Part shown: in pieces, positions 25,929 through 53,571 of the stretch
Layout: each line of letters starts with the position of its first letter
Position numbering within the stretch: the stretch's first letter is position 1
NCBI GenBank assembly: GCA_002347155.1
Contig: DDXO01000120.1
Location: 17,709-81,708 of the forward strand
DNA: 64,000 nucleotides
From: a candidate division WOR-3 bacterium UBA2258
GTDB taxonomy: Bacteria > Hydrothermota > Tepidihabitantia > Tepidihabitantales > Tepidihabitantaceae
Reading direction: 5' to 3'
Notes under the pieces: model-generated
The model's input: the letters and a program-made list of their open reading frames with translations, nothing else
What the model was told of the DNA's origin: nothing
Database searches by the model: none
Position numbers and translations under genes: made by a program

Positions 25929-26231
25929 ATGACTCTACCTGACATACCGATACCCAATCCTGCGGCAGTTCAGGAAGTGGGGGCTGACGGCTGGACCCTG
26001 CTGGTGAACCCGGACACCACCGGTGCGATGGCCGTGAACCAGACCGGGGCCCTTGTCTGGAAGCTGGTAGATGGCCGGCGTACGGCCGATGAGATTATTG
26101 CCGCGGTCCGAAGCCGCTTTCCGGATGCGCCGGACAACGTGGCTGAAGACGTGCGGGCACTTCTGACCAAGCTGGCCGACGAAGGGTTCGTCGGCCGGGA
26201 GATACCGCTTAAGGGGACACCTCATGAGTGA
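25929..26231 (+). CDS. PqqD-family peptide chaperone (RRE), type A, copy 1
   Basis: ...GWTLLVNPDTTGAMAVNQTGALVWKLVDGRRTADEIIAAVRSRFPDAPDNVAEDVRALLTKLADEGFV is the PqqD/RRE pattern. ~70% identical to 26498-26827. Confidence 0.8.
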   Translation: MTLPDIPIPNPAAVQEVGADGWTLLVNPDTTGAMAVNQTGALVWKLVDGRRTADEIIAAVRSRFPDAPDNVAEDVRALLTKLADEGFVGREIPLKGTPHE

Positions 26232-26508
26232 GAAGACCTATCGAGCAAACGAAGTCGTTTCTTGCGTTGACGAGGGCGAAGATGGGGCCATGCTCTATAA
26301 CCCGGACAAGGACGACACGGTCATCCTGAATCCCTCCGGCCGCAGCATCTGGGCCCTGCTGTCCGCCCCCCGAACTATTGACGAGATTGCAGGTCATCTC
26401 GTATCCGCCTATCCGAGCATCACGCGAGAGCAGGCACGGAAGGACGCGGAGCAGTTCCTAGAGTCTCTTGTCCCCGATTTCGCAACTCCCTCAACCGATG
26501 AGCACTGA
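26224..26508 (+). CDS. PqqD-family peptide chaperone, type B, copy 1
   Basis: ...AMLYNPDKDDTVILNPSGRSIWALLSAPRTIDEIAGHLVSAYPSITREQARKDAEQFLESL. Paralogue of 27060-27353. Overlaps its neighbours by 8 and 11 nt. Confidence 0.75.
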   Translation: MSEKTYRANEVVSCVDEGEDGAMLYNPDKDDTVILNPSGRSIWALLSAPRTIDEIAGHLVSAYPSITREQARKDAEQFLESLVPDFATPSTDEH

Positions 26509-26827
26509 GCCACTGCCAATCCCCGACCTGACCCTGCCCGACCCGCCGATGCCGAATCCATCCGCCGTCCGCGACGACGGGGAAGACGGCTGGACGCTCC
26601 TGGTGAATCCCGACACCGCCGGTGCAATGGCTGTGAATGCGACCGGCGTGCTCGTCTGGAGCCTCGTAGACGGCAAGCGTACTATCGAACAGATTGTTAC
26701 CGCGGTGAAGGACCGGTTTCCGGATGCGCCGGACACGGTGAGAGACGACGTGCTCGCATACCTGACGAAACTGACCGAGGAAGGCTTCATTGGTCAGGAA
26801 ATACCATTTCTAGACACGAATCGCTAG
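26498..26827 (+). CDS. PqqD-family peptide chaperone, type A, copy 2
   Basis: ATG 26498 overlaps the upstream stop (ATGAGCACTGA). GWTLLVNPDTAGAMAVNATGVLVWSLVDGKRTIEQIVTAVKDRFPDAPDTV... Confidence 0.8.
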   Translation: MSTEPLPIPDLTLPDPPMPNPSAVRDDGEDGWTLLVNPDTAGAMAVNATGVLVWSLVDGKRTIEQIVTAVKDRFPDAPDTVRDDVLAYLTKLTEEGFIGQEIPFLDTNR

Positions 26828-27059
26828 GAGCGCCGGGAGGCCATGGGAAGAGGGAAGAGGTGACATTGAGACCTTCCGCTGTCGGCGTACTCCGTGGTTT
26901 ACTAATGAGAGCAGGAAATGTTTGTCATTCTGAGGCGTTCGACGCCGAAGAATCTGACAACAAGCGAAGGGCTCAGGGTGACAGGGTATAGGGATACTGA
27001 GAGTGACATCAAGAACTGTCCAGTGTTTCATGCTCTCCGTAATATAAGGAGCTAGACCA

Positions 27060-27353
27060 ATGAACAAGACTACATATCGAGTGAACGAAGTCGTGTCCTG
27101 CGCCGACGAGGACGAAGACGGAGCGATGCTCTACAATCCGGACAAGGATGAAACGGTGTTGCTGAATCCCACCGGCCGCAGCATCTGGGCTCTGCTTGGT
27201 GCCCCTCGGACCCTCGACGAGGTCGCCGACCACCTGACGGCTACCTATCCGGGCGTGACAAGTGAACAGGCTCTGCAGGATGCCGACAAGTTCATCCAAT
27301 CGCTGCTGCCGGATTTCGTACTATCCGAAGGTGGGGACGCTGATGCCCGCTAA
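27060..27353 (+). CDS. PqqD-family peptide chaperone, type B, copy 2
   Basis: MNKTTYRVNEVVSCADEDEDGAMLYNPDKDETVLLNPTGRSIWALLGAPRTLDEVADHLTATYPGVT... RBS AAGGAG. Confidence 0.75.
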   Translation: MNKTTYRVNEVVSCADEDEDGAMLYNPDKDETVLLNPTGRSIWALLGAPRTLDEVADHLTATYPGVTSEQALQDADKFIQSLLPDFVLSEGGDADAR

Positions 27354-28521
27354 GAAAGCGCGAAAGGCGAAGGTAAACCCGGCACCTCAGCCGATGCCGG
27401 ACATGACCGTGCCGCCGCCGGGTCTCATGCGATTTCCCAAGTCGGTTGACCTTTCGCTCACTGGACGCTGCAACCTCAAGTGCCGCTACTGCTTCTACGC
27501 CGACGAGATGACCGCGCTCAATGACATGCCGGCGGAGCGCTGGCACGCCTTGTTCGAAGAACTCAGCAGGCTTGGTGTTCACAATGTCTGCCTCTCGGGC
27601 GGTGAGGTCTTCACCCGCCCCGACCTGTTTGAGCTGATCGATGGTGTAATCGCGAACAAAATGCGCTACAACATACTCACCAACGGCACGCTCATCACCG
27701 AGGACACGCTGGAGGAATTCGCGAAGGGCAAGCGCCGTCTGAGGCTGAGTTCAGTCCAGGTTTCAATAGATGGGTCCTGCGCCGAGATTCATGACAAGAG
27801 CCGGCCCCCGAAGAGCTTCGACCGGGCCCTGCGCGGCCTCCGTCTGCTCAAGCAGGCCAAGTTCCCGGTGACCGTGCGCGTGACCGTCAACCGGGCTAAC
27901 GTGAACGACCTGCCCAACATCGCCCGACTGCTGCTCGAGGATGTGGGTCTTGGCGCGTTCAGCACGAACGAGGCTGACCAGATGGGTTCTGCCCGGTGCT
28001 ATGGCGACAGCACAGTCCTCACTCGCTCCGAGCGAAAGCAGGCGATGGAGACTCTGGCGAGGCTGAACAAGCAATACGGAGGCAGAATCAGCGCCACTGC
28101 CGGACCACTTGCCACGGCTACAAACTTCGCCCAGATTGAGGAGGCAATCGCGCAGGGGAAGACCGGCATGCCAGGCCGGGGTACCCTGTGTTCCTGCGGC
28201 GGGGTTTTCCAGAAACTGGCTGTACTCCACGACGGAACAATCGTCCCCTGCAATATGCTGCCCAAGCTCGTCATGGGCGTCTACGGTCACCAGTCACTCG
28301 CCGAGGTCTGGCGCAACAGCCCTGCGGTCAATGTCGTTCGCTACCGGCGCCAGATACCAATACTGTCGTTGCCCGAGTGCAAGGACTGCTCGTACGCCGG
28401 TTTCTGCACTGGCGGCTGCCCGGCCTCGGTCATGGCCAAGTTCGACAGGTTGAACGCCCGTGACCCTCTAGTCTGCTACCGCATCTTCAAAGGAGAGGAG
28501 AAACAAAGTGTCGATATGTGA
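27343..28521 (+). CDS. radical SAM / SPASM-domain peptide-modifying enzyme 1
   Basis: CNLKCRYC (CxxxCxxC) rSAM cluster. C-terminal SPASM cysteines CSCGG...PCN...CKDCSYAGFCTGGCP. Start ATG 27343 overlaps the upstream stop. Confidence 0.9.
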   Translation: MPAKKARKAKVNPAPQPMPDMTVPPPGLMRFPKSVDLSLTGRCNLKCRYCFYADEMTALNDMPAERWHALFEELSRLGVHNVCLSGGEVFTRPDLFELIDGVIANKMRYNILTNGTLITEDTLEEFAKGKRRLRLSSVQVSIDGSCAEIHDKSRPPKSFDRALRGLRLLKQAKFPVTVRVTVNRANVNDLPNIARLLLEDVGLGAFSTNEADQMGSARCYGDSTVLTRSERKQAMETLARLNKQYGGRISATAGPLATATNFAQIEEAIAQGKTGMPGRGTLCSCGGVFQKLAVLHDGTIVPCNMLPKLVMGVYGHQSLAEVWRNSPAVNVVRYRRQIPILSLPECKDCSYAGFCTGGCPASVMAKFDRLNARDPLVCYRIFKGEEKQSVDM

Positions 28522-29686
28522 GCCGGTCCCCAGTCCCCAGTCCCCAGTCCCCAGTCCCTTAGACCTACCTGAGGGTGTACCGGCTTTGCGGGCGTTCTAT
28601 CTCTACATGTCCAATACCTGCAACCTCCGTTGTCGCCACTGCTGGATAACGCCGGGATTCGGCGACGGCAAGGAGACGCCAGGCGATTTTGTGGACCCCG
28701 AGGCGCTGCGTCAAGCCGTGGTCGAAGCCAAACCGCTCGGGCTTTGCTCGGTGAAGCTGACCGGTGGCGAACCGATGCTCCATCCCCGTTTCATGGAAAT
28801 CGCGGACCTGTTGACGGCGGAGGGGATGCACATGGACATGGAGACCAATGGCACCCTCATGACCGCTGAGAAGGCGCGTCATCTGAAAGAAAAGACGAGT
28901 GTCACATTCATCTCGGTCAGCCTGGATGCACCTGACGCCCGCTCGCACGACAGCTTCCGTGGAGTACCCGGCGCGTTCGACGCAGCCGTGCGCGGGCTCG
29001 ATTGCCTGGTGAACGCCGGGTACAGAAACTGCCAGGTTATCATGAGCGTTCACAAGGGCAATCGCCACCAGGTCGAGGAAGTTGTCGCTCTTGCCGCAGC
29101 CCATGGTGCAAATTCGGTGAAGTTCAACCCGGTCACCAGGACCGGCCGGGGCGCGGCAATGGAGGAAAGCGGCGAGGTAATGGACTACGACGAGCATCTC
29201 GCCTTTGCGCGGTATGTGTCAACCGAGCTACGTCCGAAAGCCCGGGTTGGAGTCATCCTCAATATGCCCCCGGCCTTGTCATCGATGCGCGACCTCTTGC
29301 GTACCCACGGCCGGACCGGTGACTGCGGTGTTTTGCGCATCCTTGGGGTATTGGGGAATGGCGACATCGCCCTGTGTGGCATCGGCCGGACAGTCCCGGA
29401 ACTGGTCTACGGGAAACTCGGCCGCGACAGCATTCGCGACATCTGGTTCTCCAACCCGACGATCCTCGGTCTGCGCCGAGCCCTGACGGACGTTGATGCG
29501 CTGCCGCTCCCCTGCGCCAAGTGTCTGTTCGTGAGGACATGTCGCACCGGGTGCGTGGCGAACAACTACACGGAAAGCGGGTCGTTGATTGCGCCGACCT
29601 GGCTGTGCGCGGAGGCTGAACGCCGCGGCGTCTTCCCGGGCAAGCGAGCGCAGAGAAGGACGTCTGGGGGCGAAAGAAAGGGATAG
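28508..29686 (+). CDS. radical SAM / SPASM-domain peptide-modifying enzyme 2
   Basis: CNLRCRHC; SPASM CGIGRT...CAKCLFVRTCRTGCV. GTG start overlaps rSAM-1 by 14 nt. The N-terminus contains the (CCCCAGT)4-encoded PVPSPQSPVPSP. Confidence 0.9.
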   Translation: MSICEPVPSPQSPVPSPLDLPEGVPALRAFYLYMSNTCNLRCRHCWITPGFGDGKETPGDFVDPEALRQAVVEAKPLGLCSVKLTGGEPMLHPRFMEIADLLTAEGMHMDMETNGTLMTAEKARHLKEKTSVTFISVSLDAPDARSHDSFRGVPGAFDAAVRGLDCLVNAGYRNCQVIMSVHKGNRHQVEEVVALAAAHGANSVKFNPVTRTGRGAAMEESGEVMDYDEHLAFARYVSTELRPKARVGVILNMPPALSSMRDLLRTHGRTGDCGVLRILGVLGNGDIALCGIGRTVPELVYGKLGRDSIRDIWFSNPTILGLRRALTDVDALPLPCAKCLFVRTCRTGCVANNYTESGSLIAPTWLCAEAERRGVFPGKRAQRRTSGGERKG

Positions 29687-29840
29687 ATGGATTCCGCGCC
29701 AGTGGAACACGAAAACGGAATGAAACGTGGACATGTGGAATCCGTCACGCATTCATTTAGTGCCCCTGGCCTCGGCTGCCCCTGTCCGACAGTGCGTGCT
29801 TTCGTGGCTCCAGTGTCGGATTCAGGAGAACGGGTTTTGC

Positions 29841-29870
29841 TTGACATGGAGGGCAGGGGGGGTGTAGAAT
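29841..29870 (+). promoter_or_regulatory. sigma70-like promoter upstream of precursor A (TTGACA-N18-TAGAAT)
   Basis: ttgacatggagggcagggggggtgtagaat, ~60 nt upstream of the precursor A start codon. This is the only consensus-like -35/-10 pair I saw in the cluster. Confidence 0.4.
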
Positions 29871-29929
29871 GATGTCGCCTACCAACCAGAGAGGGCTACA
29901 GGTCCGATAAAGTACTTAGGAGGTTAGTG

Positions 29930-30190
29930 ATGCCAGAAAAAGACGAGTCCAAGTATGACGCTCCGAGAGCAGTGCGGCTTGTTGATGCTGCGAGCGCACG
30001 GGGCAGTTGTTATTCCGGGGACACTCCCGGTGAAAGCTGCTACGACGGTAGCAACGACGTGTCGTGCAATACAGGTACCGGTGCACAGGCTTACTGCGTC
30101 AACAATGGCAGTAATGCCGCCGGCTGTGACGTAGGCAACTCTCCTGCGGTGAAGGGCTGCGAAGCAGGCCTCGGAGTCCACGCGCTGTAG
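29930..30190 (+). CDS. RiPP precursor peptide A (86 aa; leader about 1-23, core with 6 regularly spaced Cys)
   Basis: MPEKDESKYDAPRAVRLVDAASA|RGSCYSGDTPGESCYDGSNDVSCNTGTGAQAYCVNNGSNAAGCDVGNSPAVKGCEAGLGVHAL. AGGAGG RBS is 6 nt upstream. Shares the leader motif YDAPRAxRLxDxAxA-RG with 32214-32498. Confidence 0.7.
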   Translation: MPEKDESKYDAPRAVRLVDAASARGSCYSGDTPGESCYDGSNDVSCNTGTGAQAYCVNNGSNAAGCDVGNSPAVKGCEAGLGVHAL

Positions 30191-30198
30191 CAGAAGCC

Positions 30199-30265
30199 AA
30201 GGTCCTGTCGTCCGAAGCGGCAGACAGAGAACCTGCCTGGGTGTCCATGTAGGATGACAGGACCT
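30199..30265 (+). other. stem-loop downstream of precursor A (aaggtcctgtcgtcc ... ggatgacaggacct)
   Basis: 10-14 bp stem, no U-tract; possible transcript-stabilising or attenuating hairpin. Confidence 0.3.
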
Positions 30266-30396
30266 CGGACGGACGGAGCCTCGCAGTCTTGGCGCGGAAC
30301 GGAAACGAAGAACGCTGTTGTCTCTCGTTCATTTCGTGATGTGGGCTTGGCTGTGCAAGCTGAGGCACACGCAGCGGGCGGCTAGAAGGAAAACGC

Positions 30397-32202
30397 TTGG
30401 TGTCCAGAACTGAGCAATCCCAGGTTTCGCAGCGCCCTTTGAGACTAGAACTGGCTGACGGCAGTCGGTGGACGATTATCGGTGCGGACGAGCCGTCAGT
30501 CCTCGTAGTGTCAGAACTGGGCAAAACCATGCGCCTTATGCCCGGCGCTGTGGGTCGCGAGCTGTACGCAGTCGTGTCTTGTGACAGACATCACGACCCG
30601 CAGAAGCCGAGCCGGAACGGCGCGGCTGTGTGCTGGCTTTCCCCGTTGCTCGATCGAAGCCTGCAGATCATCCAGATGGAGAGAATCGCGAAGTTGATTG
30701 CGTTGGAGTCTCTATCGCAGGGCGGTTTGCTTCTCCACTGTGCACTGGCCGAGTACAAGGGAGCTGGCTACGTGATGGCCGGACCCAGCGGAGTCGGCAA
30801 GAGCACCGCCAGCAATCGACTTCCGCTGCCCCATCGTTCGCTATGCGACGACCGGACCCTCGTCGTGCGAGACTCCACCGGCCAGTACTGGGCGCATCCC
30901 TGGCCGACTTGGAGCCAGTTGCACGACGGGAGAGACTCTTCGTGGCCGGTCGAAAACGCCGTCCCACTGCGGGGAATGTTCTTTCTCGGCCAATCCGCGT
31001 CTGTGCGACTCCAGCCGACAGGCCGGACGCAAACGACTGCTCTGATAATGGAATCGGCATTCGACCTTATCCTGGCGATCGCGAGGCTGTCCGAAGTCAG
31101 CGCTTCCACGAAACTCTGGGAAAACCACCTTGGTGCGGCCAAGGCTCTGGCTGCCGCAGTGCCGGCCTATTCACTTGAGATGAGCCTTGACGGCGAATTC
31201 TGGAATGAGATAGAGCAGGTACTGACCGTTATCGGCGATGACGGGGCCAGACAACCGCCTCCCGGCAAGCAGCAGTCCTCGCTCGACTTTCTCCGTGCCG
31301 GTGCACACAACTCCGAGGCGTTCCCGTCAGAAACGGGCGACGGCAGGCTGCGCGCCGTCTGTCTGGGAAGCGCCATGAACCTGACGCTGGCGGAAGCTGA
31401 CATACTCGAAGTCGAACCCTACGGCCGGCGCCGGGTTCGTCCGGGAGACGTCGTCTGCTTCATGTCTCCCGAGAATGCTGAGACGTGTGTGCGGCGTGTC
31501 GTGTCAGTCGAGGGTCGAGGGACGAGGGACGAAGGACTGCGGGACGCAATCCTGACGCGCGGTGACAACAACCCAAACAATGACCCGTGGCTCTTACGGA
31601 GCGAGGACATTGTCGGACGGGTTGTCGCCGCGCGACGCGGCTCTCGCCGGCGACCGATAGACGGAGGTCTGAGGGGACGGATGACAGCCGTACTGCTGCG
31701 CGGCCTGTGGTCGTTACGAGCATTCGGCCAAAGGGTACCTCTTCGTTTGCGGGAGGTTGCCATTAGAGTTGGCTCGCTCGAAGGCGCGCTTCCTCAGTAC
31801 CTCAGGCCCCGGCTGGTGAAGTTCAACGGACGCCACTGGGTGAAACTCAAGCTGCTGCTCGCCGAACGAGAGATCGGACGTTACGACTGCTATGCTCAGG
31901 CGTGGCGTGTTCGGCAGCCGTTTCGTATGTTGCTGGACCTGAGCAAGTTACCGGGGCGATCGATATGGAGCCGTGCCAACTTAGCGGGGGCGCGTCTGCG
32001 ACCCGCACGAAGGCACGAGGAGAACGGTCTGCTGACGGCGTCCAGGACGGCCTTTGCGGCCGGACGCGGTGATTCAGCGAAAAGAGATCCAACAGAATCG
32101 TCGGGCAGTGCCCGGCGACAGAGAAGTGCCAACCGCGCCGCCTCGACCATCGTCGAGGCGGCGGTCGAATTCGTGACCAGTGAACCGGAGAACATACCTT
32201 AA
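30397..32202 (+). CDS. HprK-related kinase (P-loop GPSGVGKST) fused to a catalytically inactive S26/signal-peptidase-like domain
   Basis: N-terminal half ...LHCALAEYKGAGYVMAGPSGVGKSTASN resembles the HPr kinase C-terminal domain. The C-terminal half aligns with the S26 peptidase at 34891-35685 (ILEVEPYGRRRVRPGDVVCFMSPE, TRGDNNPNNDPW), but it has GSAMNLTL where the paralogue has GPSMNPTL and RRV where the paralogue has HRV. Confidence 0.75.
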   Translation: MVSRTEQSQVSQRPLRLELADGSRWTIIGADEPSVLVVSELGKTMRLMPGAVGRELYAVVSCDRHHDPQKPSRNGAAVCWLSPLLDRSLQIIQMERIAKLIALESLSQGGLLLHCALAEYKGAGYVMAGPSGVGKSTASNRLPLPHRSLCDDRTLVVRDSTGQYWAHPWPTWSQLHDGRDSSWPVENAVPLRGMFFLGQSASVRLQPTGRTQTTALIMESAFDLILAIARLSEVSASTKLWENHLGAAKALAAAVPAYSLEMSLDGEFWNEIEQVLTVIGDDGARQPPPGKQQSSLDFLRAGAHNSEAFPSETGDGRLRAVCLGSAMNLTLAEADILEVEPYGRRRVRPGDVVCFMSPENAETCVRRVVSVEGRGTRDEGLRDAILTRGDNNPNNDPWLLRSEDIVGRVVAARRGSRRRPIDGGLRGRMTAVLLRGLWSLRAFGQRVPLRLREVAIRVGSLEGALPQYLRPRLVKFNGRHWVKLKLLLAEREIGRYDCYAQAWRVRQPFRMLLDLSKLPGRSIWSRANLAGARLRPARRHEENGLLTASRTAFAAGRGDSAKRDPTESSGSARRQRSANRAASTIVEAAVEFVTSEPENIP

Positions 32203-32213
32203 GGAGGTACGAC

Positions 32214-32498
32214 ATGGATAATCAGAAGAGCCCGGAGCCGAACGAGCGCGTTCGCTCTGGATATGATGCACCACGTGCCCAGAGACTGAGCGACGTGGCA
32301 CCGGCACGCGGCGATGACTGCGGTCCAGGCAACGCCGCAGATCCTGGGCAATGCAGTGGCAACGGCAGTGCTGCTCAGAATACCTGCACCAATGGCGGCC
32401 AGGCGGTTGCCTGCAAGGACAACGGCAACATAGCGACTCTCTCGTGTTATGGCGGGAGTGGCGCAACCGAGTGCGGTAACGGAAACTCAGCCATATAG
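32214..32498 (+). CDS. RiPP precursor peptide B (94 aa; leader about 1-31, core with 6 regularly spaced Cys)
   Basis: MDNQKSPEPNERVRSGYDAPRAQRLSDVAPA|RGDDCGPGNAADPGQCSGNGSAAQNTCTNGGQAVACKDNGNIATLSCYGGSGATECGNGNSAI. AAGGAGG RBS overlaps the kinase stop codon. Confidence 0.7.
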   Translation: MDNQKSPEPNERVRSGYDAPRAQRLSDVAPARGDDCGPGNAADPGQCSGNGSAAQNTCTNGGQAVACKDNGNIATLSCYGGSGATECGNGNSAI

Positions 32499-32647
32499 GC
32501 ATCGGATAAGGCAGAGAGTCGAAACCAAGACTGACTGCTGTCGGGTTGGCTGACCCTTCGCGGGGAGCAGGCCGGCGTAGGCAACCGGGACGCACGCGGG
32601 GAGGCGTCTGCTAAACGTCCCCTTCCTGCAGCACTTGGTAAGATAGA

Positions 32648-32694
32648 CCGGGCCGGAGTCCCGCAATCCGGCCCGGTTGGTTCTTGTTGCTTGC
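32648..32694 (+). terminator. rho-independent terminator after precursor B
   Basis: accgggccgga-gtcccgcaa-tccggcccggt followed by tggttcttgttgcttg. Confidence 0.6.
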
Positions 32695-32982
32695 GAAGTA
32701 CCCTGCTGCAGGCCTTGGCCGGAATGGCTGTACGCCCGCGTGGTGGCAAAGGGGCCAGTGGTGACCAAAAGAGGTGAACCGCTGAGTCCCCGCCACGGAG
32801 TGGGACTTCAGACGCAAGATCCGGAGCGCCTGCTGTCTGACAGTAATCGCATCGGCCAATCAACATTGAACCCCTGGTTCCCCCACTCCGTCCCTTTGCT
32901 GCATTCGAGCTAGATAATGTCGGTTCTGGGGTACTGAGATGACTTGCCCGGTATATCTGCTTTGGTAGACTGCTGACGGCCG

Positions 32983-34845
32983 ATGGATTCACAACCAGCA
33001 GAAGACTCGCGACCCGGGATGGTCGAGACCCTGAAACAGGGTCTGCATCTGGGTCGCGCGCTTCGTCTCGTCTGGTCCATCGCTCCGGGCTGGGCGGTGA
33101 TGAACCTTGTCCTGGTTTTCGTGCAGGGATTCATGCCTCTGCTTGCACCCTACTTCATGAAGCGCACCATCGATGCCCTGCAGGCCGCCATGGCGATGCA
33201 GACCGGCCTTACCGCCTTTCGCCCGGTCCTATTCTGGGTCATTCTTGCCGCCGCGGCAGCGTTACTGTCAGCGCTGCTTAACTCATTCTCCGGGCTGGCC
33301 GGCCAGTACCAGTCCATGGTTTTTTCCGACAAGGTGACCGACATTGTGCACAGCCAGTCGGTCGCGGTTGACCTTGAGTACTACGAAAATCCCAGCTACT
33401 ACAACACCATGCAGCGAGCTCAGGTCGAGGCACATTCCCGGCCCATCGGTGTTGTCAACCGCCTCGTCACCATCGGCAGGAGCATGGTTTCGCTCGTCGG
33501 GGTCGCCGGCTTGCTCCTCGCTTTCAATCCGCTGGTCGCACTGGCCCTCTTCTGTGTGGCCTTGCCCGGAGCGCTTGTGCAGTCGGTCTTTGCGCGCCGC
33601 CAGTACCGCCTTGAACTGGCGCAGACCGAGAAAGAACGCCAGGCGTCATACTATCACTTCATGCTGACCGGTTCGTGGTTTGCCAAGGAACTGCGGTTGT
33701 TCAACCTGGGGTCTTTGTTTCGGACCCGGTTCCAAGGCCTGCGTCAGCAACTACGCGGAACGAGACTGGCCTTGTCCCGGCGGCGCACCGTTGCCGGTCT
33801 GCTGGCCGGGTCCCTGACCTCAGGGGCTATCTTCGGCTCCCTGGCCTTCGTTGCCTATCAGGCCTACCTGGGGAAAACCACGCTCGGCAGTCTCGTGATG
33901 TACTACTCCATTTTCCAGCTCGCAGTCGGCTCATTCTCGAGCGTACTGAGCGGAGTGGCCGGACTCTACGAAGACAACCTCTTCCTCACCAATTTCTACA
34001 AATTCATGGACCTGAAGCCGCGGGTCATGGTGCCGGCGAGTCCGGCCCCGACTCCGACCCGAATCAGTCAGGGCGTCGCGTTCCATGACGTGCACTTCGC
34101 GTACCCGAGCGACTCCCGGACGGTGCTGGATGGGGTCAACCTGAATATCGCTCCGGGCCAGGTTGTTGCGCTGGTTGGCGCAAACGGCTCTGGCAAGACC
34201 ACGCTGGTTAAGCTCCTGTGCCGGCTCTACGACCCGGACTCGGGCACTATCACTGTTGACGGCACCGACCTCCGACGTCTGGACCCGGTGGGATGGCGCC
34301 GGAAAGTCAGCGTCATCTTGCAGGACTATGTTCAGTATGGCATGACAGCCTGGGAGAACATCTGGATGGGCGACGCGGAAAGAGAGCCGGACCGGAGCCG
34401 AATCACCCGGGCGGCCGAACTCTCCGGCGCTGACTCGGCAATCAGGAAACTGCCCCAGGGGTATGACACTCCGCTGGGCTTTCAGTTCAAGCGCGGCCGG
34501 GAGCTGAGCATCGGCGAGTGGCAGAAAGTGGCTCTGGCTCGTGCGTTCCTCCGCGATTCGGAACTGGTCGTCCTGGACGAGCCCACCAGCTCACTCGACC
34601 CTTTGGCCGAGGCCGAGGTATTCGACCACTTCCGACGAGCTATACGGGGCAGAAGCGCGGTGCTCATCAGCCATCGCTTCTCCACCGTGAAGATGGCCGA
34701 CTACATCTATGTCCTCGACCACGGTCGGGTCGCGGAGTCCGGCACCCACCAGGAACTCTTCGACCGGGGCGGCCTCTATGCCCATCTCTACTCAGTCCAG
34801 GCCGCCCGGTATCAGGCCCAGCCAACAGACCAGCGTGCAGGCTGA
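32983..34845 (+). CDS. ABC exporter, fused permease/ATP-binding protein
   Basis: N-terminal 6-TM domain. Walker A GANGSGKTT, signature LSIGEWQKVALARAF, Walker B LVVLDEPTSSLD. Confidence 0.9.
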   Translation: MDSQPAEDSRPGMVETLKQGLHLGRALRLVWSIAPGWAVMNLVLVFVQGFMPLLAPYFMKRTIDALQAAMAMQTGLTAFRPVLFWVILAAAAALLSALLNSFSGLAGQYQSMVFSDKVTDIVHSQSVAVDLEYYENPSYYNTMQRAQVEAHSRPIGVVNRLVTIGRSMVSLVGVAGLLLAFNPLVALALFCVALPGALVQSVFARRQYRLELAQTEKERQASYYHFMLTGSWFAKELRLFNLGSLFRTRFQGLRQQLRGTRLALSRRRTVAGLLAGSLTSGAIFGSLAFVAYQAYLGKTTLGSLVMYYSIFQLAVGSFSSVLSGVAGLYEDNLFLTNFYKFMDLKPRVMVPASPAPTPTRISQGVAFHDVHFAYPSDSRTVLDGVNLNIAPGQVVALVGANGSGKTTLVKLLCRLYDPDSGTITVDGTDLRRLDPVGWRRKVSVILQDYVQYGMTAWENIWMGDAEREPDRSRITRAAELSGADSAIRKLPQGYDTPLGFQFKRGRELSIGEWQKVALARAFLRDSELVVLDEPTSSLDPLAEAEVFDHFRRAIRGRSAVLISHRFSTVKMADYIYVLDHGRVAESGTHQELFDRGGLYAHLYSVQAARYQAQPTDQRAG

Positions 34846-34890
34846 AGGAAAGGTGAAGGTCCAGGTAGAGGTAGAGGCAAAGGCAGAGGA
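34846..34890. repeat. intergenic spacer made entirely of purine-rich hexamer repeats
   Basis: gaaggaaaggtgaaggtccaggtagaggtagaggcaaaggcagagga lies between the ABC stop and the S26 start. Confidence 0.6.
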
Positions 34891-35685
34891 ATGACTGAGG
34901 GACAGCAGCGGACGGCAGGCCCCGGGAAGGGAGAACCAGATGCGCTTGCTTCGAACAGGCCGGGCTGGACGGCCGACTTCCCTTCGGTTGAGTCAATCGT
35001 AGTCGACGGTCGGCGGCGCGTCGTCTATACCGGGCCCAGCATGAATCCGACCCTGCGCGTGCCGGACATCCTGTGGGTAGAACCATATGGGAAAAGGCCT
35101 GTACGAGCCGGAGATGTCGTCTGCTTCGCGTCGCCTGAGCTTGACACCAACATCGTACACCGCGTCATCTCCGTCCGTCCTTCGTCCCCAGTCCCTGGTC
35201 CCTCGTCTCCCGTCTCCGGTCTCCGGTCTTCCGTCCTCGGTCTTCCGTCTCCGGTCGCCATCCGGACGCAGGGCGACAATAACCCATTGGCCGACACCCG
35301 GGTTCTTGCGCCTGCTGACCTATTGGGGCGGGTAGTGGCGGCGCAGCGCGGCACGCGGCTCCGTTCCATCCATGGTGGCCACGCCGGCCTGATGGTCGCT
35401 TGGAGTGTAAAGCTGGGAAAGGCGATCTGGGGGGTCGTTGCCGGCGTCGCGAGCGCCGTCTACCAGAGCCTCATCCAGGGAAGTCGGTTTGGCTTCCTGC
35501 TGCCCGGCGGCCTGAGACCCAGACTGGTCTCCTTCAAAGGACGTGACGCACCGATCTTCAGGGTGCTTATGGGCGGTCGGACGGTCGGACACTATGACTA
35601 TCGCTACCATCAGTGGCACATCCGGCGACCATTCCGCTTGTTCGTGGACGAACGTACCCTACCCGACCCGAAGTCCAAGGACTAG
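34891..35685 (+). CDS. signal peptidase I-like S26 peptidase, SipW/Sec11 (Ser/His) type, probably the leader peptidase
   Basis: GPSMNPTL (box B Ser) and IVHRVISV (box D His) both intact; RTQGDNNPLAD box. In-frame insert of CCGTCT-family repeats (PSSPVPGPSSPVSGLRSSVLGLPSPV) at 35170-35258. Confidence 0.75.
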   Translation: MTEGQQRTAGPGKGEPDALASNRPGWTADFPSVESIVVDGRRRVVYTGPSMNPTLRVPDILWVEPYGKRPVRAGDVVCFASPELDTNIVHRVISVRPSSPVPGPSSPVSGLRSSVLGLPSPVAIRTQGDNNPLADTRVLAPADLLGRVVAAQRGTRLRSIHGGHAGLMVAWSVKLGKAIWGVVAGVASAVYQSLIQGSRFGFLLPGGLRPRLVSFKGRDAPIFRVLMGGRTVGHYDYRYHQWHIRRPFRLFVDERTLPDPKSKD

Positions 35686-35732
35686 TTTATGGTTGCAGGT
35701 TCTAAGTTCCTGGTTTCCGGCTCGGAATCGAA

Positions 35733-37055
35733 ATGACTAGCGCGGTTGAGACACTGTTCCAGTACCTCTGTCCTAAGTCCCCCGTCCCTCGTCCCCCGTC
35801 CGACCAGGAACCTGAAACCAGTGACTTGGTACTTCATCCGTCCAACCAGGAACCTGAAACCAGTGACTTGGTACTTCATCCGTCCAACCAGAAACCTGAA
35901 ACTAGTAACCAAGAACTTTTGGGCGTTGACTGGAACGCCGTCATCGACACGGCTGCCCACAACAGCCTCGAGCCGCTGCTGTTCAAGCGTCTCAAAGAGA
36001 GCGGCACGCGGGCCTATGTCCCAGCAGGCTCCTGGGAAAGGCTGCGACAGGCCTACTTCAGCAGCGCCCAGAAAAACCTGCACCTCTATCGAGAACTCCG
36101 GCCGGTACTTCGCCGCCTGCGCGACTCCGGCATCCCGGTGATTGTCCTGAAGGGGGCCTTTCTGGCCGAGGCGGTTTACGGCGACGTCGCACTCCGGCCG
36201 ATGTGCGACGTCGACCTCATGGTACCGAAAGCAGAGCTGCCGAAAGCCCAGACAATCCTGCTCGACATGGGCGGCGTTCAGAAGGACCCCACAGGAAACG
36301 AGGCGTTCTGGAGGGAACACCACCACCCTCCGCCGACCTACCTCCGCGACCTCTCCATTGAGCTTCACTGGACCATCGCCGACCCCACCGGGCCCGTCAA
36401 AATAGACCCTGCCGGGCTCTGGTACAGGGCGCAACGAGCTACGATAGCGGGCGTCGAACTGCTGGCGTTATCCCCTGAAGACCTGTTGGTCCACCTCTGT
36501 GTGCACTTCGGCGGTGAACACCATCTCAACGGATTGCGCTCCTTCTGCGACATCACTGAGACTATTCGCCTCCGCGGCGGAGACATGGACTGGCAGCAGG
36601 TCGTAGACTCGACTCGCGAGTGGCTTGCTGCAAGATACGTAGGCCTGACACTCCATCTCGCCCGACGCCTGGTGGGCGCGGGCGTACCGGATGATGTGCT
36701 TGAACGGTTAGTCCCCGGTGGCATTGACGAGCACGTACTGGAATTGGCGAGGCAGCTCGTACTTGCCGACACCGGTTATGCCCCGTGGTCACCGGTTTCC
36801 GGCCTCGTAGGCGCCAGGTCATTCAATGACAAGACAAAGCTGCTGTGGCAGCGGGTCTTCCTTTCACGTGACGAAATGGCCAGGGTCTATCCCGGCTCTC
36901 GCGAATCGCGCTTTCTCTGCCGCTACTACGCGCTGCGGGTCAGGGATGTCATACGGAATCGTGGGGCGACCGTAGTGAAGCTGGCCAGGAGTCCTGACTT
37001 CGCAGAGAGCACTACGGAGAGTGCGGTCGTGGCCAACTGGCTGAGATCCGGGTAG
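35733..37055 (+). CDS. nucleotidyltransferase family protein (NTP_transf_5-like, as found in lasso/sactipeptide clusters)
   Basis: ...GIPVIVLKGAFLAEAVYGDVALRPMCDVDLMVP... The ORF N-terminus is encoded by a 45-bp tandem repeat (EPETSDLVLHPSNQ x2.5); the true start may be downstream of the repeat. Confidence 0.7.
   Translation: MTSAVETLFQYLCPKSPVPRPPSDQEPETSDLVLHPSNQEPETSDLVLHPSNQKPETSNQELLGVDWNAVIDTAAHNSLEPLLFKRLKESGTRAYVPAGSWERLRQAYFSSAQKNLHLYRELRPVLRRLRDSGIPVIVLKGAFLAEAVYGDVALRPMCDVDLMVPKAELPKAQTILLDMGGVQKDPTGNEAFWREHHHPPPTYLRDLSIELHWTIADPTGPVKIDPAGLWYRAQRATIAGVELLALSPEDLLVHLCVHFGGEHHLNGLRSFCDITETIRLRGGDMDWQQVVDSTREWLAARYVGLTLHLARRLVGAGVPDDVLERLVPGGIDEHVLELARQLVLADTGYAPWSPVSGLVGARSFNDKTKLLWQRVFLSRDEMARVYPGSRESRFLCRYYALRVRDVIRNRGATVVKLARSPDFAESTTESAVVANWLRSG
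35805..35905. repeat. 45-bp tandem direct repeat, ~2.5 copies
   Basis: ccaggaacctgaaaccagtgacttggtacttcatccgtccaac x2, then a degenerate partial copy. Confidence 0.75.
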
Positions 37056-37223: not shown

Positions 37224-38213
37224 TCACAGCTTCGGGTCGCCATCACCTGACACCGGTTCCCGGCGTGACTTATGTTGGCTGCGGCGGATATCCTCAAGCA
37301 TCAGTACAGCGCGGGCGGCAGCTACGCCAGGCACGCGTGGTAGCCGTGCGAGCAGTCCGCGCAGCGGGTATGCAAGCGCCACAGCCAGAGCTGCCTGTGG
37401 CCGGTAGGCGATGCCTAGCTGGCAGTGGATCAGCCGGAACCCGAGTCTCTGCAGGACATCGTTGTAGCTGGTGTCGTGTAGAACCGTACGAGTACCGTTC
37501 AGGAGCTTCATACCGCGCTTCAAGACGTACTCCTCCTGAAGAGTGCGCGTGAGCGCGAACACGACACGATTTCGGAGATGGTGAGGATGATAATACAAGT
37601 ATGACTGATGCACCCACTCGCCGCCGATGATTCTCTCGCAAAAGGCCGCCAGTTCACCCGCGACCAGTACAGCCCAGTGTTCAAAGGGACCGTCGGCCTT
37701 GTTGAGCATATACTCGGACCACGCCCATTCATGCCCCGGCCGCAGCCCCCGGCTCGACATGGCGGCGACGTAGCACGAGTAGCCTCGCTCGGCCAGCCAG
37801 CCGGGCTCGGCTCTTTGTACGGAACATCGCTCATACCCGATGTGGACGTGACGCCGGTCTCTCTTGCCAAGAGCCTCCAAGTCCGGGACGCTGTCGCACA
37901 CTACGTAATACCAGCCTGTTGGCTCCTGCGAAATGTGACCGGCGTAGCGCAGCAGCCACGCACGTGACTCGCGGAGTAGCCGGACGGCCTCATCGTTCTG
38001 TAGGACCACCGGGACCGGTACGTCGTCCACGGGCAGAAGTACATGTCTGTTGACGCACCATACGATTCCGCCGCCCGAATAGAGGCGTATGCCGCGTGCA
38101 CGCAGGTAATCTACCCGACTGGGCCGGTTTGCTGCTCCCGCGCTTCCTGGAACTCCGCCCGCACTACCCAACTGCAGACCTCCCTGGCGTGTGTGTGAAC
38201 GCAAACCGTACAC
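37224..38213 (-). CDS. hypothetical protein (possibly FemAB/GNAT-like), last gene of the polysaccharide locus
   Basis: Coding-like. No family assigned. Confidence 0.3.
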   Translation of the reverse strand: MYGLRSHTRQGGLQLGSAGGVPGSAGAANRPSRVDYLRARGIRLYSGGGIVWCVNRHVLLPVDDVPVPVVLQNDEAVRLLRESRAWLLRYAGHISQEPTGWYYVVCDSVPDLEALGKRDRRHVHIGYERCSVQRAEPGWLAERGYSCYVAAMSSRGLRPGHEWAWSEYMLNKADGPFEHWAVLVAGELAAFCERIIGGEWVHQSYLYYHPHHLRNRVVFALTRTLQEEYVLKRGMKLLNGTRTVLHDTSYNDVLQRLGFRLIHCQLGIAYRPQAALAVALAYPLRGLLARLPRVPGVAAARAVLMLEDIRRSQHKSRREPVSGDGDPKL

Positions 38214-38285
38214 TCGCCGCTCGAAAGCGGACGTGCCCCGCTTCCAGCCACAGCTCGCGGGGTCTGTGCTGTCGGGCCGGCACCA

Positions 38286-39560
38286 CTAGTGGACTACCCT
38301 CCGGTCGAGCGTAGCGGCGACGTGTTCAATGTGCCTGACCATGGCTCCGTACACCTTGTCGGGATGGAGCTCAGTTTCATAAAGCCGAATCGCCTGTCTC
38401 CGCATCTCCGCGAGCCGCGACGCGTCCGCAGCGAGGTCCGAGATAGTGCGGGCGAGAACCTCCGGGGCACGATTGGGGTAGGTGACCCCGCAGCCAGAGC
38501 GCCGCAGCAATTGCTCAAGCGAGCCCTCCACGCTCGACAGAATAGGCAATCCCGCAGACAAGTACTCAATCACCTTGATTGGATAGCTTCTGACCAAAGA
38601 ATATGTGCTTGCGTACGGAACAAGCCCGACGGATGCCAGGCGCAGGAGGGCCCAAATCTTCGCCCGGTCCACCCAGCCGGGCAGCATCACATTCTGGCAT
38701 TCGCGAGCCAGATTGCGGTAGTACTCAAGACTGTCGCCGGTCCCGCAGAGCACGAACCTGCATTTGGGGCAACTCTCTCTCAACTGCCGGGCGGCCAGAA
38801 TAACTGCATCGAGGTCAAGCAGCCGGCGCGTTCCCAGGCTGCCGGCCAAGCACAGCACGAAGTCCGATTCGCGCAGACCACGGGAGTGCCAGTATCCTCG
38901 GGCCTCGGTGAGCTGGGCATCGGTGGGAGTCCACGTATCGTTGGCCAGCGGGAAGCTCCCATCCAGTTCCGACACGTCCCTGCCGGCGCAGGACGCGCCC
39001 CATTCAACAAATGCCGGCGTAATCCCCAGCAGCCCGGTGGCCTTCCGACATGCCTGGGCTGCCATCCTGAAGTAGGGAGTCAGGGCAACCCTGCCGATGC
39101 CCCTGAGCCAATCCGGGACAACGTCCAACATGACTCTTGGCCACAGGTCCCTTATGTCCAATACAACCGGCACGTCCCTCTCTCTCCCGTACCGCGTCGC
39201 CTCATAGCTCATGTCGAGGGTCGGGAACGAACAGACGATGACATCAGGCCTGGCCTCGGTCCGGGCGTACCTGCGAAACTTGCGGCCGATAAGCCAGTGG
39301 TTCACAACTCGCGCGACCGAGACATTCTTGCTGTACGATGTCGCGTGCAGCAGCCGGTAGGCAAGCTGCGGGCTCACGTCAACTCGCGAGTCCCTGTCGG
39401 CCTCGTGCCGCTTTCGCGCGTGGTCGAAGGTCGAACCCCACCAGAGCACGTGATGACCGGCTTCCATCAGGTGGTCGGCGATGTTGCCCGCACGGAACCT
39501 CCGATCTTCCGGATGGAAGTAGGGAAGGGGATCGCCGATGTCGATCAGCCAGACGCGCAT
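38286..39560 (-). CDS. glycosyltransferase family 4
   Basis: MRVWLIDIGDPLPYF...; C-terminal E-x7-E-like region ...YPIKVIEYLSAGLPILSS. Confidence 0.85.
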   Translation of the reverse strand: MRVWLIDIGDPLPYFHPEDRRFRAGNIADHLMEAGHHVLWWGSTFDHARKRHEADRDSRVDVSPQLAYRLLHATSYSKNVSVARVVNHWLIGRKFRRYARTEARPDVIVCSFPTLDMSYEATRYGRERDVPVVLDIRDLWPRVMLDVVPDWLRGIGRVALTPYFRMAAQACRKATGLLGITPAFVEWGASCAGRDVSELDGSFPLANDTWTPTDAQLTEARGYWHSRGLRESDFVLCLAGSLGTRRLLDLDAVILAARQLRESCPKCRFVLCGTGDSLEYYRNLARECQNVMLPGWVDRAKIWALLRLASVGLVPYASTYSLVRSYPIKVIEYLSAGLPILSSVEGSLEQLLRRSGCGVTYPNRAPEVLARTISDLAADASRLAEMRRQAIRLYETELHPDKVYGAMVRHIEHVAATLDRRVVH

Positions 39561-39785
39561 GACCCTAGTTCACTTCCCTGGAACCGAGACTGAAACCGCG
39601 AACGAGAGACACGAAGCGACAAGAAGTCATCCACTGATTACGCAGATTACACCGATGGTCTCAAGCCCGAGTCTGCGGAATCCGTGGCATCTGTGGATAT
39701 CCGCTCTGGCTCCCATTCCGTGTCTCAACTGCGACGGCAAGACCGGGCGCCCGCCGAATCTGCCGGACGAAACCTCCACGTAGTC

Positions 39786-40511
39786 CTACGGTTGGTTGGG
39801 GGCCATTTCCTCAACTGTAGAGGCCTTGGCTGCGTCGTTGAGGACACGGCGCGACTCCGGCCCGCAGTTGAAGAGCAGGTCTATGGCTGCGAGATTCGGG
39901 ATGAACGGTTCGCCCTGCTGGGCGTAAACCGGGTGAGCCAGCCGCACAAACCGGTGGTGAAGGCCCTGCCTCCGGAACTCCTCCACATCTACGTAGGACT
40001 TCCCACCCCAGCCTGAGACGTAGGTGTCGCATCCTGCCTTTCGGCACATGTCGATGAGCATCGCCGTCTTCTCACCAGTGACATTGCACTGCGAGCTACT
40101 CAGAACCTCCTTCTCTATGCCGAAGCACTTCATCAGGTAGTGCGTTATGGCGAGGCTGAGGTCAACGAGACGCGGCGAGGCCTTCGTATAGACCTCCTCG
40201 AAGAAACCGCGGTGGTCCTCGAAGAAAGGCGCATTGTGGTAGTTGAGGGATATAGTCCGCCAGTGCTTCCGCGCCCAGGGCAGGGAGTTATCTATGAGTA
40301 CTTCGTCCGTCCTCTGGTAGAACCTGCCTTTGGTCAGCACGGGGACGGTCAGGAGAATCCGGTCGGTGCGGCCGCGAACGTAGTTCCGATTCTGGAACAG
40401 CTTCTTTTCAAACTGCGCGTGGTCCACGAACATGAACTTGTCGCACTGGGTCATCTTATAGAAAACGCCGAGATAGGGCAGGTACGCGGGTTGGTGGCCG
40501 GCGAGTTTCAA
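39786..40511 (-). CDS. WbqC-family protein
   Basis: MKLAGHQPAYLPYLGVFYKM... is the WbqC N-terminal signature (cf. 57015-57770). Confidence 0.7.
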   Translation of the reverse strand: MKLAGHQPAYLPYLGVFYKMTQCDKFMFVDHAQFEKKLFQNRNYVRGRTDRILLTVPVLTKGRFYQRTDEVLIDNSLPWARKHWRTISLNYHNAPFFEDHRGFFEEVYTKASPRLVDLSLAITHYLMKCFGIEKEVLSSSQCNVTGEKTAMLIDMCRKAGCDTYVSGWGGKSYVDVEEFRRQGLHHRFVRLAHPVYAQQGEPFIPNLAAIDLLFNCGPESRRVLNDAAKASTVEEMAPNQP

Positions 40512-40514
40512 GAC

Positions 40515-47708: not shown

Positions 47709-47733
47709 CGTTGTTGGCAGGAGGTTGCTGACG

Positions 47734-49548: not shown

Positions 49549-49550
49549 GT

Positions 49551-53559: not shown

Positions 53560-53571
53560 CGGCCTAACAGA

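Follow-up and report, generated by a model that had tools for sequence, protein, structure and literature searches.

A SynChlorMet cassette in a candidate division WOR-3 bacterium and its probable role in maturing Cys-repeat peptides

What would be made by a gene cluster that encodes two radical S-adenosylmethionine (radical SAM) enzymes, two short Cys-rich peptides, four PqqD-type proteins, a kinase-like protein, S26-type peptidase domains, an exporter and a nucleotidyltransferase-fold protein? The question is raised by positions 25,929 to 37,055 of a 64,000-nt stretch of DNA (the whole stretch is called the window hereafter) from the candidate division WOR-3 bacterium UBA2258 (contig DDXO01000120.1, positions 17,709 to 81,708). 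An initial annotation, made from the sequence alone, had described the region as an unclassified cluster for a peptide that is made by the ribosome and modified after translation (RiPP), not assignable to a described class. The system does have a name, however: it is called the SynChlorMet (SCM) cassette in NCBIfam, and JGI and NCBI annotate close homologues of its proteins as ScmE and ScmC. We consider it probable that the region is an SCM cassette acting as a RiPP cluster, in which a cross-linking module is combined with a tailoring module like that of linear polyphosphorylated peptide (LPP) and paeninodin clusters.

An ORF (open reading frame) scan placed 12 co-directional ORFs on the plus strand between 25929 and 37055. 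They are listed here in gene order, with the PqqD-type proteins named as RiPP recognition elements (RREs) of types A and B:

25929..26231, plus strand: RRE A1, discrete PqqD-family chaperone of A-type (ScmD-like); PF05402 64.7 bits, TIGR04248 59.2 bits
26224..26508, plus strand: RRE B1, discrete PqqD-family chaperone of B-type; PF05402 49.4 bits; overlaps A1 by 8 nt
26498..26827, plus strand: RRE A2, paralogue of A1; PF05402 61.5 bits
27060..27353, plus strand: RRE B2, paralogue of B1; PF05402 50.4 bits; overlaps the ScmE start
27343..28521, plus strand: ScmE-type radical SAM/SPASM enzyme, 392 aa, without fused RRE; TIGR04250 388.9 bits
28508..29686, plus strand: ScmF-type radical SAM/SPASM enzyme, 392 aa; TIGR04251 339.9 bits; overlaps ScmE by 14 nt
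29930..30190, plus strand: precursor 1, 86 aa, leader YDAPRAVRL...ARG, six-Cys core; precursor hidden Markov model (HMM) E 1.9e-18
30400..32202, plus strand: ScmC fused to a pseudo-S26 domain (ScmC::S26), 601 aa; TIGR04249 148.2 bits (cutoff 125), sigpep_I_arch 40.9 bits
32214..32498, plus strand: precursor 2, 94 aa, leader YDAPRAQRL...ARG, six-Cys core; precursor HMM E 2.4e-21
33019..34845, plus strand: MsbA-like ABC exporter with fused transmembrane and nucleotide-binding domains and no C39 domain; PF00005 112 bits, PF00664
34891..35685, plus strand: stand-alone Sec11/SipW-type S26 peptidase; PF10502 24.6 bits, sigpep_I_arch 45.1 bits
35733..37055, plus strand: NTP_transf_5 nucleotidyltransferase-fold protein; PF14907 213.6 bits; DVD metal motif at aa 159-161

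All of the products first described were found in place, but their genes number 12 and not thirteen, since one ORF (30397/30400-32202) encodes both the kinase-like part and the first of the S26 domains. Likewise, the overlapping or tightly coupled junctions ascribed to the cluster exist at A1/B1, B1/A2, B2/ScmE and ScmE/ScmF, whereas four other junctions are gaps of 200-520 nt. Pfam domains matched in the cluster were PqqD (four times), Radical_SAM, SPASM, ABC_tran, ABC_membrane, Peptidase_S26 and NTP_transf_5, and within the cluster transmembrane segments were found only in the ABC exporter. A homologous locus, L001, is collinear with the cluster at 84-89% nucleotide identity. The ratio of nonsynonymous to synonymous substitution rates (dN/dS) between the two was 0.06-0.34 for every gene, both precursors included, indicating purifying selection on all of them and therefore that the ORFs are real genes rather than chance ones. 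In line with the initial annotation, no lasso cyclase, B2 protease, lanthipeptide synthetase or YcaO protein was found by family match in the 12 cluster ORFs or the scanned flanking ORFs.

The SCM cassette is an in silico family of Haft, modelled as ScmD (TIGR04248), ScmC (TIGR04249; also PF27840), ScmE (TIGR04250) and ScmF (TIGR04251). All four are present here, adjacent to one another in the same way. The ScmC match exceeded its cutoff, and PF27840 (named ScmC) matches a protein identical to the fusion on a JGI metagenome contig (P0134). The ScmE and ScmF matches were both below a cutoff of 400 bits and were by a wide margin the best for these enzymes, the next-best families scoring 130 and 134 bits, respectively; homologues at 64-93% identity carry the name ScmE in public annotation. 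The ScmD model (cutoff 100) scored 59-62 bits with the A-type and 31-32 bits with the B-type RREs. Scores below the trusted cutoffs for ScmE, ScmF and ScmD mark the window cluster as part of a divergent, WOR-3-type branch. The models of the HPr-rel-A system (TIGR04352/TIGR04353) did not reach their curated cutoffs: HprK_rel_A 15.2 bits (cutoff 200), HprK_rel_B 19.6 bits and PqqD_rel_X 18-19 bits (cutoff 35).

A scan of one genome per species gave 56 loci, hosted by WOR-3, Chloroflexota/Anaerolineae, many Desulfobacterota, Acidobacteriota, KSB1, Bacteriovoracaceae and others, with at least 9 of the 56 from methanogens (Methanoregula, Methanospirillum, Methanotrichaceae). Their usual order is RRE-A, RRE-B, ScmE, ScmF, a small ORF and ScmC::S26 (~500-540 aa), often followed by NTP_transf_5 and ABC exporter genes. 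Twenty-four loci were well flanked, with no less than 5 kb on the upstream and 6 kb on the downstream side; ScmF and an RRE were present in all 24, a precursor and an S26 domain in 21 each, an ABC exporter in 18, ScmC (counted at E<1e-5) in 16 and NTP_transf_5 in 11. The combination that had seemed unusual at first is thus the standard architecture (two RREs, ScmE, ScmF, precursor and ScmC::S26, with or without NTP_transf_5 and ABC exporter), with thousands of members in many phyla. The database definition comprises four proteins and is in silico only; the precursor family, the B-type RRE, the S26 domain, NTP_transf_5 and the ABC pump also belong to the conserved set. What sets the clade of the window apart from this norm is that the RRE pair is duplicated, that there are two precursors, and that the fused S26 domain is dead and accompanied by a stand-alone S26 peptidase. 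A literature search found no paper on the SynChlorMet cassette, on ScmC, ScmD, ScmE or ScmF, or on their substrate, and nothing relevant on RiPP systems that join HprK-related kinases to radical SAM enzymes or on PF14907; overviews of radical SAM RiPPs were silent on the cassette; as far as could be established, the family is named but uncharacterized.

The two precursors were as first described, with six Cys each and a common leader, YDAPRAxRL..ARG. Their conservation, on which the whole interpretation of the cluster had been made to depend, was checked and held: besides the 21 well-flanked loci, 869 matches at E<=1e-3 turned up when 1.84 billion representative proteins were searched exhaustively with HMMER, and 143 of the 148 newly retrieved proteins among the best 150 matches were at most 130 aa long with YxxP and at least three Cys. 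A word-indexed protein search with the precursor profile had yielded 13 matches only, so the exhaustive search was needed to reveal the family. With the HMM, built from the small ORFs, 1-3 precursors were found in almost every locus. The dN/dS values against L001 were 0.34 for precursor 1 and 0.27 for precursor 2. Precursor 1 was called as a gene by JGI, without Pfam match, the close homologues of precursor 2 (P0121-P0128) are all labelled 'hypothetical', and none of the retrieved proteins of the family had a Pfam domain or a name beyond 'hypothetical'. To our knowledge, the SCM precursor family had not been annotated before; the text of the NCBIfam model presumably describes the precursor as not identified.

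Leader statistics were taken from 202 distinct sequences selected for YxxP and at least three Cys, so that Tyr and Pro are fixed by the selection itself. Relative to the Tyr (Y), Leu occurs at Y+8 in 84%, Gly or Ala at Y+14 in 74% and Gly at Y+16 in 85% of the sequences, and the first Cys is at Y+18 or Y+19. The resulting consensus is Y-E-x-P-x-[AV]-x-R-L-x-[DE]-x3-[GA]-x-G. This leader motif is kept across bacteria and archaea, and the precursor ORFs have a fixed place beside ScmF or ScmC. The cores, examined as 56 distinct sequences from the fetched loci, consist of 3-7 repeats of C-x-x-G-[GST]-x-[AP], with a Cys-Cys spacing of 9-12, Gly at +3 in 69%, and a tail of 6-9 aa past the last Cys. 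They are 30-70 aa long, repetitive and hypervariable, Cys and Gly being the only conserved residues and the C-terminal residues not being fixed. Gly, Ala, Ser, Cys, Thr, Asn and Pro dominate their composition, and Trp (0.6%), Tyr (1.8%) and Lys (1.3%) are rare. One protein from the representative search, outside the window, is larger: P0261 (266 aa) carries an SCM-type leader (YEPPRIFDL) and ten KCQPG-type Cys repeats, as well as a C-terminal domain that we take to resemble a type IX secretion sorting tail, which would fit a destination at the cell surface.

Which reaction would take place on these repeats? The two enzymes have the radical SAM and SPASM Cys arrays attributed to them at the outset, that is, CX3CX2C and CX2CX5CX3C plus flanking Cys: CNLKCRYC at aa 43 and CKDCSYAGFCTGGC in ScmE, CNLRCRHC at aa 38 and CAKCLFVRTCRTGC in ScmF. 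ScmE matched PF04055 with 94.7 bits and PF13186 with 34.5 bits; the SPASM match of ScmF was under the Pfam cutoff (18.0 vs 21.5), although its Cys array is complete. Since the CX3CX2C motif lies near residue 40 in both, neither enzyme has a fused RRE. ScmF adjoins ScmE in all 24 well-flanked loci, and because both enzymes are always present two different reactions or regiochemistries are expected. The nearest solved structures to ScmE were the thioether synthase SkfB (7.5e-16), then PqqE (6.4e-14) and SuiB. ScmE also matched MftC (104 bits) and WgkB. NCBIfam matches to characterized thioether-synthase families (AlbA, StsB, PapB etc.) scored 80-105 bits, far below their cutoffs of 340-850. Regularly spaced Cys residues in the cores of radical SAM RiPPs have thioether formation as their best-precedented fate. 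By this analogy, ScmE and ScmF would most likely form a thioether in each repeat, a reading favoured because only Cys and Gly are conserved in every repeat, aromatic residues and Lys are rare, and SkfB is the best solved relative of ScmE. Sactipeptide and ranthipeptide systems share with the SCM cassette the radical SAM/SPASM maturases, Cys-rich cores and RRE, and it is by analogy with them that thioethers are proposed here. They differ in that enzymes such as SkfB, AlbA, CteB and PapB usually have their own N-terminal RRE and act alone, whereas in the SCM cassette a pair of enzymes without an RRE of their own and no fewer than two discrete RREs are obligatory.

The RREs show the A-B-A-B arrangement of paralogues already noticed: A1 and A2 are 67% identical, in agreement with the ~70% first given, B1 and B2 70%, and A- and B-types ~30%, with PF05402 scores of 49-65 bits over the four. 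The arrangement goes back to a tandem DNA duplication in which the segment 25925-26206 pairs with 26524-26805 and the segment 26224-26482 with 27060-27318, nucleotide identity being 73% in both cases. Four RREs also occur in L001 and in another locus, L060, where a 109-aa homologue of A2 is called as a gene; this recurrence indicates a feature of the clade and not an assembly artefact. The start of A2 was placed at the ATG overlapping the end of B1, the longest ORF starting from TTG at 26468. Against L001, A1 had a dN/dS of 0.06. ScmD was the top RRE model for A1, A2 and B1 (for B1, 32 bits, then lasso PqqD with 31 bits), and B2 prefers lasso PqqD (34.2 vs 31.5 bits). In profile comparisons with solved RRE structures, LppB (PDB 9x8z) was the top match for both types (34 vs 29 bits), and PqqD proper was matched by the A-type only (E 8.7e-5; TIGR03859 39-42 bits). 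A divergent clade has an RRE fused to ScmE, which scores B-like or ambiguous. The fusion hints at a pairing of the B-type RRE with ScmE, which profile comparisons do not discriminate. A service of the B-type RREs to the S26/kinase module, guessed from the lasso PqqD matches, was also considered and found no support in the fusion data. Between A2 and B2 lies a stretch of ~134 nt (26909-27043) that is missing from L001 and single-copy in the window, and that contains an imperfect palindrome at 26924-26958 (GTCATTCTGAGGCG..CGCCGAAGAATCTGAC).

The ScmC fusion begins with an N-terminal domain and a P-loop domain of HprK/PEPCK fold (together aa 1-290), with the P-loop GPSGVGKS at aa 129-136 and an Asp pair at 151-152, followed by an S26-like domain (aa ~319-420) and a conserved C-terminal domain (aa ~421-530). 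A single-sequence search of the PDB matched HprK at E 0.087 only, so that profile and fold searches were needed; an AlphaFold2 model (pLDDT 87) gave Foldseek matches to PEPCK (1.8e-7) and HprK/P (3e-6), upholding the resemblance to HPr kinase noted previously. His114, GK[ST]TA and Asp151-Asp152 are invariant. Two S26-type domains had been reported and both are present, but only the stand-alone copy can be catalytic here. At the places of the family motifs SM and HR the fused domain carries GSAMNLTL and VRRV, meaning that the nucleophile Ser and the general-base His have been lost. The stand-alone peptidase has all three boxes intact (GPSMNPTL, IVHRV and QGDNN, for Ser/His/Asp) and no transmembrane or hydrophobic segment; its AlphaFold2 model (pLDDT 80.5) had SEC11C/A as top Foldseek match (6e-5), and the profile of the S26 family matches SEC11C at E 5.8e-14. 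We predict that it is the leader peptidase.

The loss in the fused domain is typical of one lineage. Among 114 clusters of ScmC homologues, 66 keep Ser/His/Asp, 20 have Ala/Arg/Asp, about a dozen show other single losses and 13 are without S26; the closest relatives of the window are 19 of the 20 Ala/Arg/Asp clusters and one Ala/Leu/Asp variant. A dead fused S26 domain is accompanied by a stand-alone S26 gene 3′ of the ABC gene in all five contigs that are sufficiently long (the window, L001, L058 with Ser/Arg/Asp, L059 and L060). The stand-alone copy has the full triad in four of the five, and the 194-aa gene call in L060 covers the His and Asp boxes only. This pattern suggests that the intact paralogue may compensate for the dead fused domain in this lineage. 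In the pairwise comparison with L001, the core of the pseudo-S26 domain had a dN/dS of 0.24, which indicates that it remains under purifying selection, perhaps in a scaffolding or binding role; at ~1.0 in the same single comparison, the final 70 residues of the fusion appear to evolve neutrally. The two S26 proteins also have ~110 C-terminal residues in common (encoded at 35380-35685 and 31660-31990), modelled as a long helix and a small beta domain, in which F, G and W are invariant. Solved structures gave no significant match to this C-terminal domain, which may be an RRE- or leader-docking element.

For an S26 leader peptidase and a phosphorylating HprK-like kinase, both proposed in the initial annotation, a direct precedent has been established by experiment in Bacillota, with the LPP clusters lppA-K-B-S-D-N (Popov et al., Nat Commun 2026, PMC13381572). 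Their core set comprises LppS, a signal peptidase I-like (archaeal-type S26) peptidase; LppB, a discrete RRE; LppK, a kinase resembling HprK; LppN, an uncharacterized NTP-transferase; and LppD, a pump resembling MsbA. The clusters sit within loci for capsular polysaccharide, and YxxP is found in their leaders. LppK was shown to polyphosphorylate core residue Ser3, and leader removal by LppS requires LppB and is abolished by S29A, H68A or D93A. The authors describe signal peptidase I-like peptidases as new to RiPP pathways and LPPs as restricted to Bacillota (PMC13381572). All five functions are also encoded in the window cluster, where an S26 peptidase with intact Ser/His/Asp stands alongside four discrete RREs, and the ABC exporter has MsbA-type NCBIfam matches of 251-258 bits; the likeness of kinase, transferase and pump is one of family and fold, and not of sequence comparison with LppK or LppN. 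Both systems are embedded in polysaccharide loci, and the leader Tyr is at -16 relative to the cut in LppA and would be at -17 in SCM precursors if the cut follows the conserved Gly. There are clear differences, however. LPP clusters lack radical SAM enzymes, have one RRE only, encode the kinase and the peptidase in separate genes and have cores that are not Cys-rich, and the LPP leader motif (YxxPxVLxHQxIxFETxxS) has only YxxP in common with that of SCM. In the SCM cassette the kinase is fused to S26, the hosts lie far outside Bacillota, and two radical SAM/SPASM enzymes are obligatory, while LPP clusters are defined by phosphorylation as the primary modification of a linear product, with no other class-defining enzyme.

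A second parallel is found in the lasso peptides paeninodin and pseudomycoidin, whose clusters, like the SCM cassette, combine an HprK-family kinase with an Asp pair (PsmK/PadeK), a nucleotidyltransferase (PsmN) and a PqqD-type RRE (PMC6993621). Mutation of the Asp pair inactivates PsmK, and hexoses are attached to the phosphorylated lasso peptide by PsmN, a member of 'a family of uncharacterized nucleotidyltransferases' (PMC6993621). The Ser targeted by the lasso kinases is C-terminal; in SCM precursors, by contrast, the final residues vary.

From these comparisons we infer the following chemical steps, cleavage site and RRE-enzyme contacts. The discrete RREs would bind the leader through Tyr-x-x-Pro...Leu and present the precursor to ScmE and ScmF, which would act on the core at its repeated C-x-x-G-[GST]-x-[AP] units. 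The likeliest reaction would be the closure of one Cys-derived thioether ring of sactionine or ranthionine type per repeat, with the second radical SAM enzyme performing a second kind of radical modification. The HprK-fold domain of ScmC would phosphorylate a Ser or Thr of the peptide, and NTP_transf_5 would extend or decorate the phosphate. The cytoplasmic Sec11/SipW-type peptidase would cut off the leader in an RRE-dependent manner, probably after [GA]-x-Gly, 16 residues past the Tyr, and the MsbA-like pump would export the product, presumably to the cell envelope, a destination suggested by the polysaccharide locus around the cluster. Leader binding, RRE-dependent cutting, phosphorylation, decoration and export are all proposed by analogy, the LPP system providing the precedent. 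As for the history of the lineage, duplication affected the RRE pair and a precursor gene, and the fused S26 domain lost its Ser and His, its paralogue keeping the triad.

Several observations weigh against parts of this scheme. Three of the four NCBIfam SCM models scored below their trusted cutoffs, no product has been described for any SCM cassette, and the thioether is an analogy drawn from the Cys-rich cores and the SPASM domains. The nearest solved relative of ScmF is the sugar decarboxylase BlsE, and by NCBIfam scores both radical SAM enzymes resemble the heme-modifying AhbD/NirJ. A division of labour between A- and B-type RREs is not separable by profiles, and some loci carry one RRE type only. 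For the tailoring steps, the core has no invariant Ser or Thr, the sequence similarity between ScmC and HprK is weak (profile E 0.008), and NTP_transf_5 is missing from more than half of the well-flanked loci. Moreover, LppS cleaves after F-E-T and not after small residues, which weakens any argument for the cleavage site from small residues at -3 and -1, and LppN was without activity in a heterologous host (PMC13381572).

Of the other explanations, the one that fares best leaves the rest of the pathway unchanged and lets the radical SAM enzymes act on the Cys-repeat core without forming thioethers, through C-C or C-O cross-links, epimerization, formylglycine, dehydro-residues, or action on the phosphate or sugar. 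SPASM enzymes catalyse many reactions, the relatives of ScmF are BlsE and AhbD, those of ScmE include SuiB, WgkB and PqqE, which form C-C bonds, and the constant presence of two different enzymes suggests two chemistries. We nevertheless regard this explanation as unlikely, given that Cys is the sole residue besides Gly conserved in every repeat and that the residues used in known C-C cross-links are rare in the cores. A route of the pyrroloquinoline quinone (PQQ) or mycofactocin kind, in which the peptide is processed to a small redox-active cofactor rather than exported as a large peptide, was considered very unlikely. Such systems do share with the SCM cassette a discrete PqqD-type chaperone and a SPASM radical SAM enzyme (PqqD/PqqE, MftB/MftC), and both the matches of the A-type RREs to PqqD proper and those of ScmE to PqqE and MftC point that way. 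They differ in the type of product, however: the SCM cores are long, repetitive and hypervariable without fixed C-terminal residues, there are up to three precursors per locus, a dedicated exporter and a leader peptidase are conserved, and no downstream partners of PqqB/C or MftD/E/F type were found among the cluster ORFs.

It is more improbable still that this is an ordinary LPP cluster whose radical SAM pair belongs to the neighbouring polysaccharide pathway. The set of S26 peptidase, RRE, HprK-like kinase, NTP-transferase and MsbA-like pump, together with the polysaccharide context, would fit the LPP definition, but the ScmE and ScmF genes overlap each other and the RRE genes, the pair occurs with RREs in every well-flanked locus and with precursors in nearly all of them, across phyla and whatever flanks the cassette, ScmE is fused to an RRE in the divergent clade, and the Cys-repeat cores are unlike LppA, with YxxP as the only shared leader element. 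Finally, that the small Cys-rich ORFs are chance ORFs and the true substrate is encoded elsewhere can scarcely be right: the window has 60% GC and many spurious ORFs, and the precursors match no Pfam or NCBIfam model and have only 'hypothetical' database copies, but the leader is conserved across two domains of life and hundreds of matches, nearly all of the newly retrieved ones conforming, and the ORFs hold a fixed position by ScmF or ScmC under purifying selection.

Returning to the preferred reading of an SCM cassette with cross-linking and tailoring modules, a further, tentative step is to see in it an undescribed RiPP class, with a ring made in each repeat by two cooperating SPASM enzymes, phosphorylation and glycosylation or nucleotidylation, cleavage by a kinase-fused Sec11-type peptidase, delivery to the envelope or polysaccharide, and a chemistry or final conjugate unlike that of known sactipeptides and ranthipeptides; this is possible, and we would not put it more strongly. 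If true, the class would span anaerobic bacteria and methanogenic archaea. Independently of this step, the loci give evidence that the LPP-type module, shown in 2026 for Bacillota, is far more widespread, reaching archaea and being coupled to radical SAM chemistry. Now that its leader ruler is defined and its repeat core recognized, the orphan SCM system is open to reconstitution. The S26 pair furthermore offers a natural case of a catalytic domain decaying to a pseudo-enzyme beside a compensating paralogue.

The surroundings of the cluster bear on where the product might act. The following features lie inside or next to it:

29841..29870, plus strand: sigma-70-like promoter match, TTGACA-18-TAGAAT, 11/12 consensus match, 60 nt 5′ of precursor 1
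37224..63018, minus strand: polysaccharide biosynthesis locus (GT4, GT2, Wzy_C, FemAB/GNAT, WbqC, PIG-L, Wzt-type ABC)

Upstream, a WecA/MraY-family transferase is encoded at 23281-24552 (minus strand), and other SCM cassettes have PMT_2, Polysacc_synt_2, dTDP-sugar, Wzz/GNVR and Wza/SLBB genes as neighbours. That cassettes repeatedly occur next to polysaccharide loci is a hint that the system functions in the cell envelope or in biofilm and not as an antibiotic. The promoter match inside the cluster may give precursor 1 its own transcript. No convincing ORF was found in the ~1.4 kb 5′ of RRE A1 (24553-25928), of which only the last ~450 nt (from 25485) align to L001, and the segment may be the regulatory region of the cluster. 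An Rfam scan of 20-42 kb revealed no riboswitch or leader RNA, the single match being a tRNA gene at 23129-23201 (plus strand, 70 bits) between the WecA-like gene and an ORF at 21940-22701 (minus strand). That ORF had weak matches to CBASS-cyclase-like nucleotidyltransferases (44 bits, far under the cutoff). A terminator scan found 14 candidates, not clearly above the 8.9 +/- 2.6 expected in a shuffled background.

In several genomes the SCM cassette adjoins a second, divergent cassette or an extra pair of ScmC and NTP_transf_5 genes, at the following positions of their loci:

L004, 888-5577, minus strand: second cassette or extra pair
L050, 9497-14822, minus strand: second cassette or extra pair
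L053, 12633-17958, minus strand: second cassette or extra pair
L058, 3251-6090: second cassette or extra pair

In L050 and L053 this addition brings its own short Cys-containing, precursor-like ORFs.

Repeats were also found within the coding sequences. A 42-nt unit, repeated 2.6 times with 95% matches at 35796-35906, encodes repeated PSNQEPETSDLVLH at the N-terminus of NTP_transf_5, in a segment that has no alignment to L001. Units of 7-9 nt form short tandem arrays in the cluster at 28526-28558, 31509-31546, 35177-35256 and 35770-35801, and outside it at 3303-3342, 8098-8133, 16673-16708 and 59088-59171. A heptamer family, GTCCC[CT]N, lies in frame within four cluster genes and in both orientations, encoding inserts rich in Pro/Ser/Val or in Arg/Gly/Asp. 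Read in tandem, GTCCCCA equals CCCCAGT, which we take to be the cyanobacterial STRR1 unit. Two of the heptamer inserts occupy the same loop of the two S26 domains.

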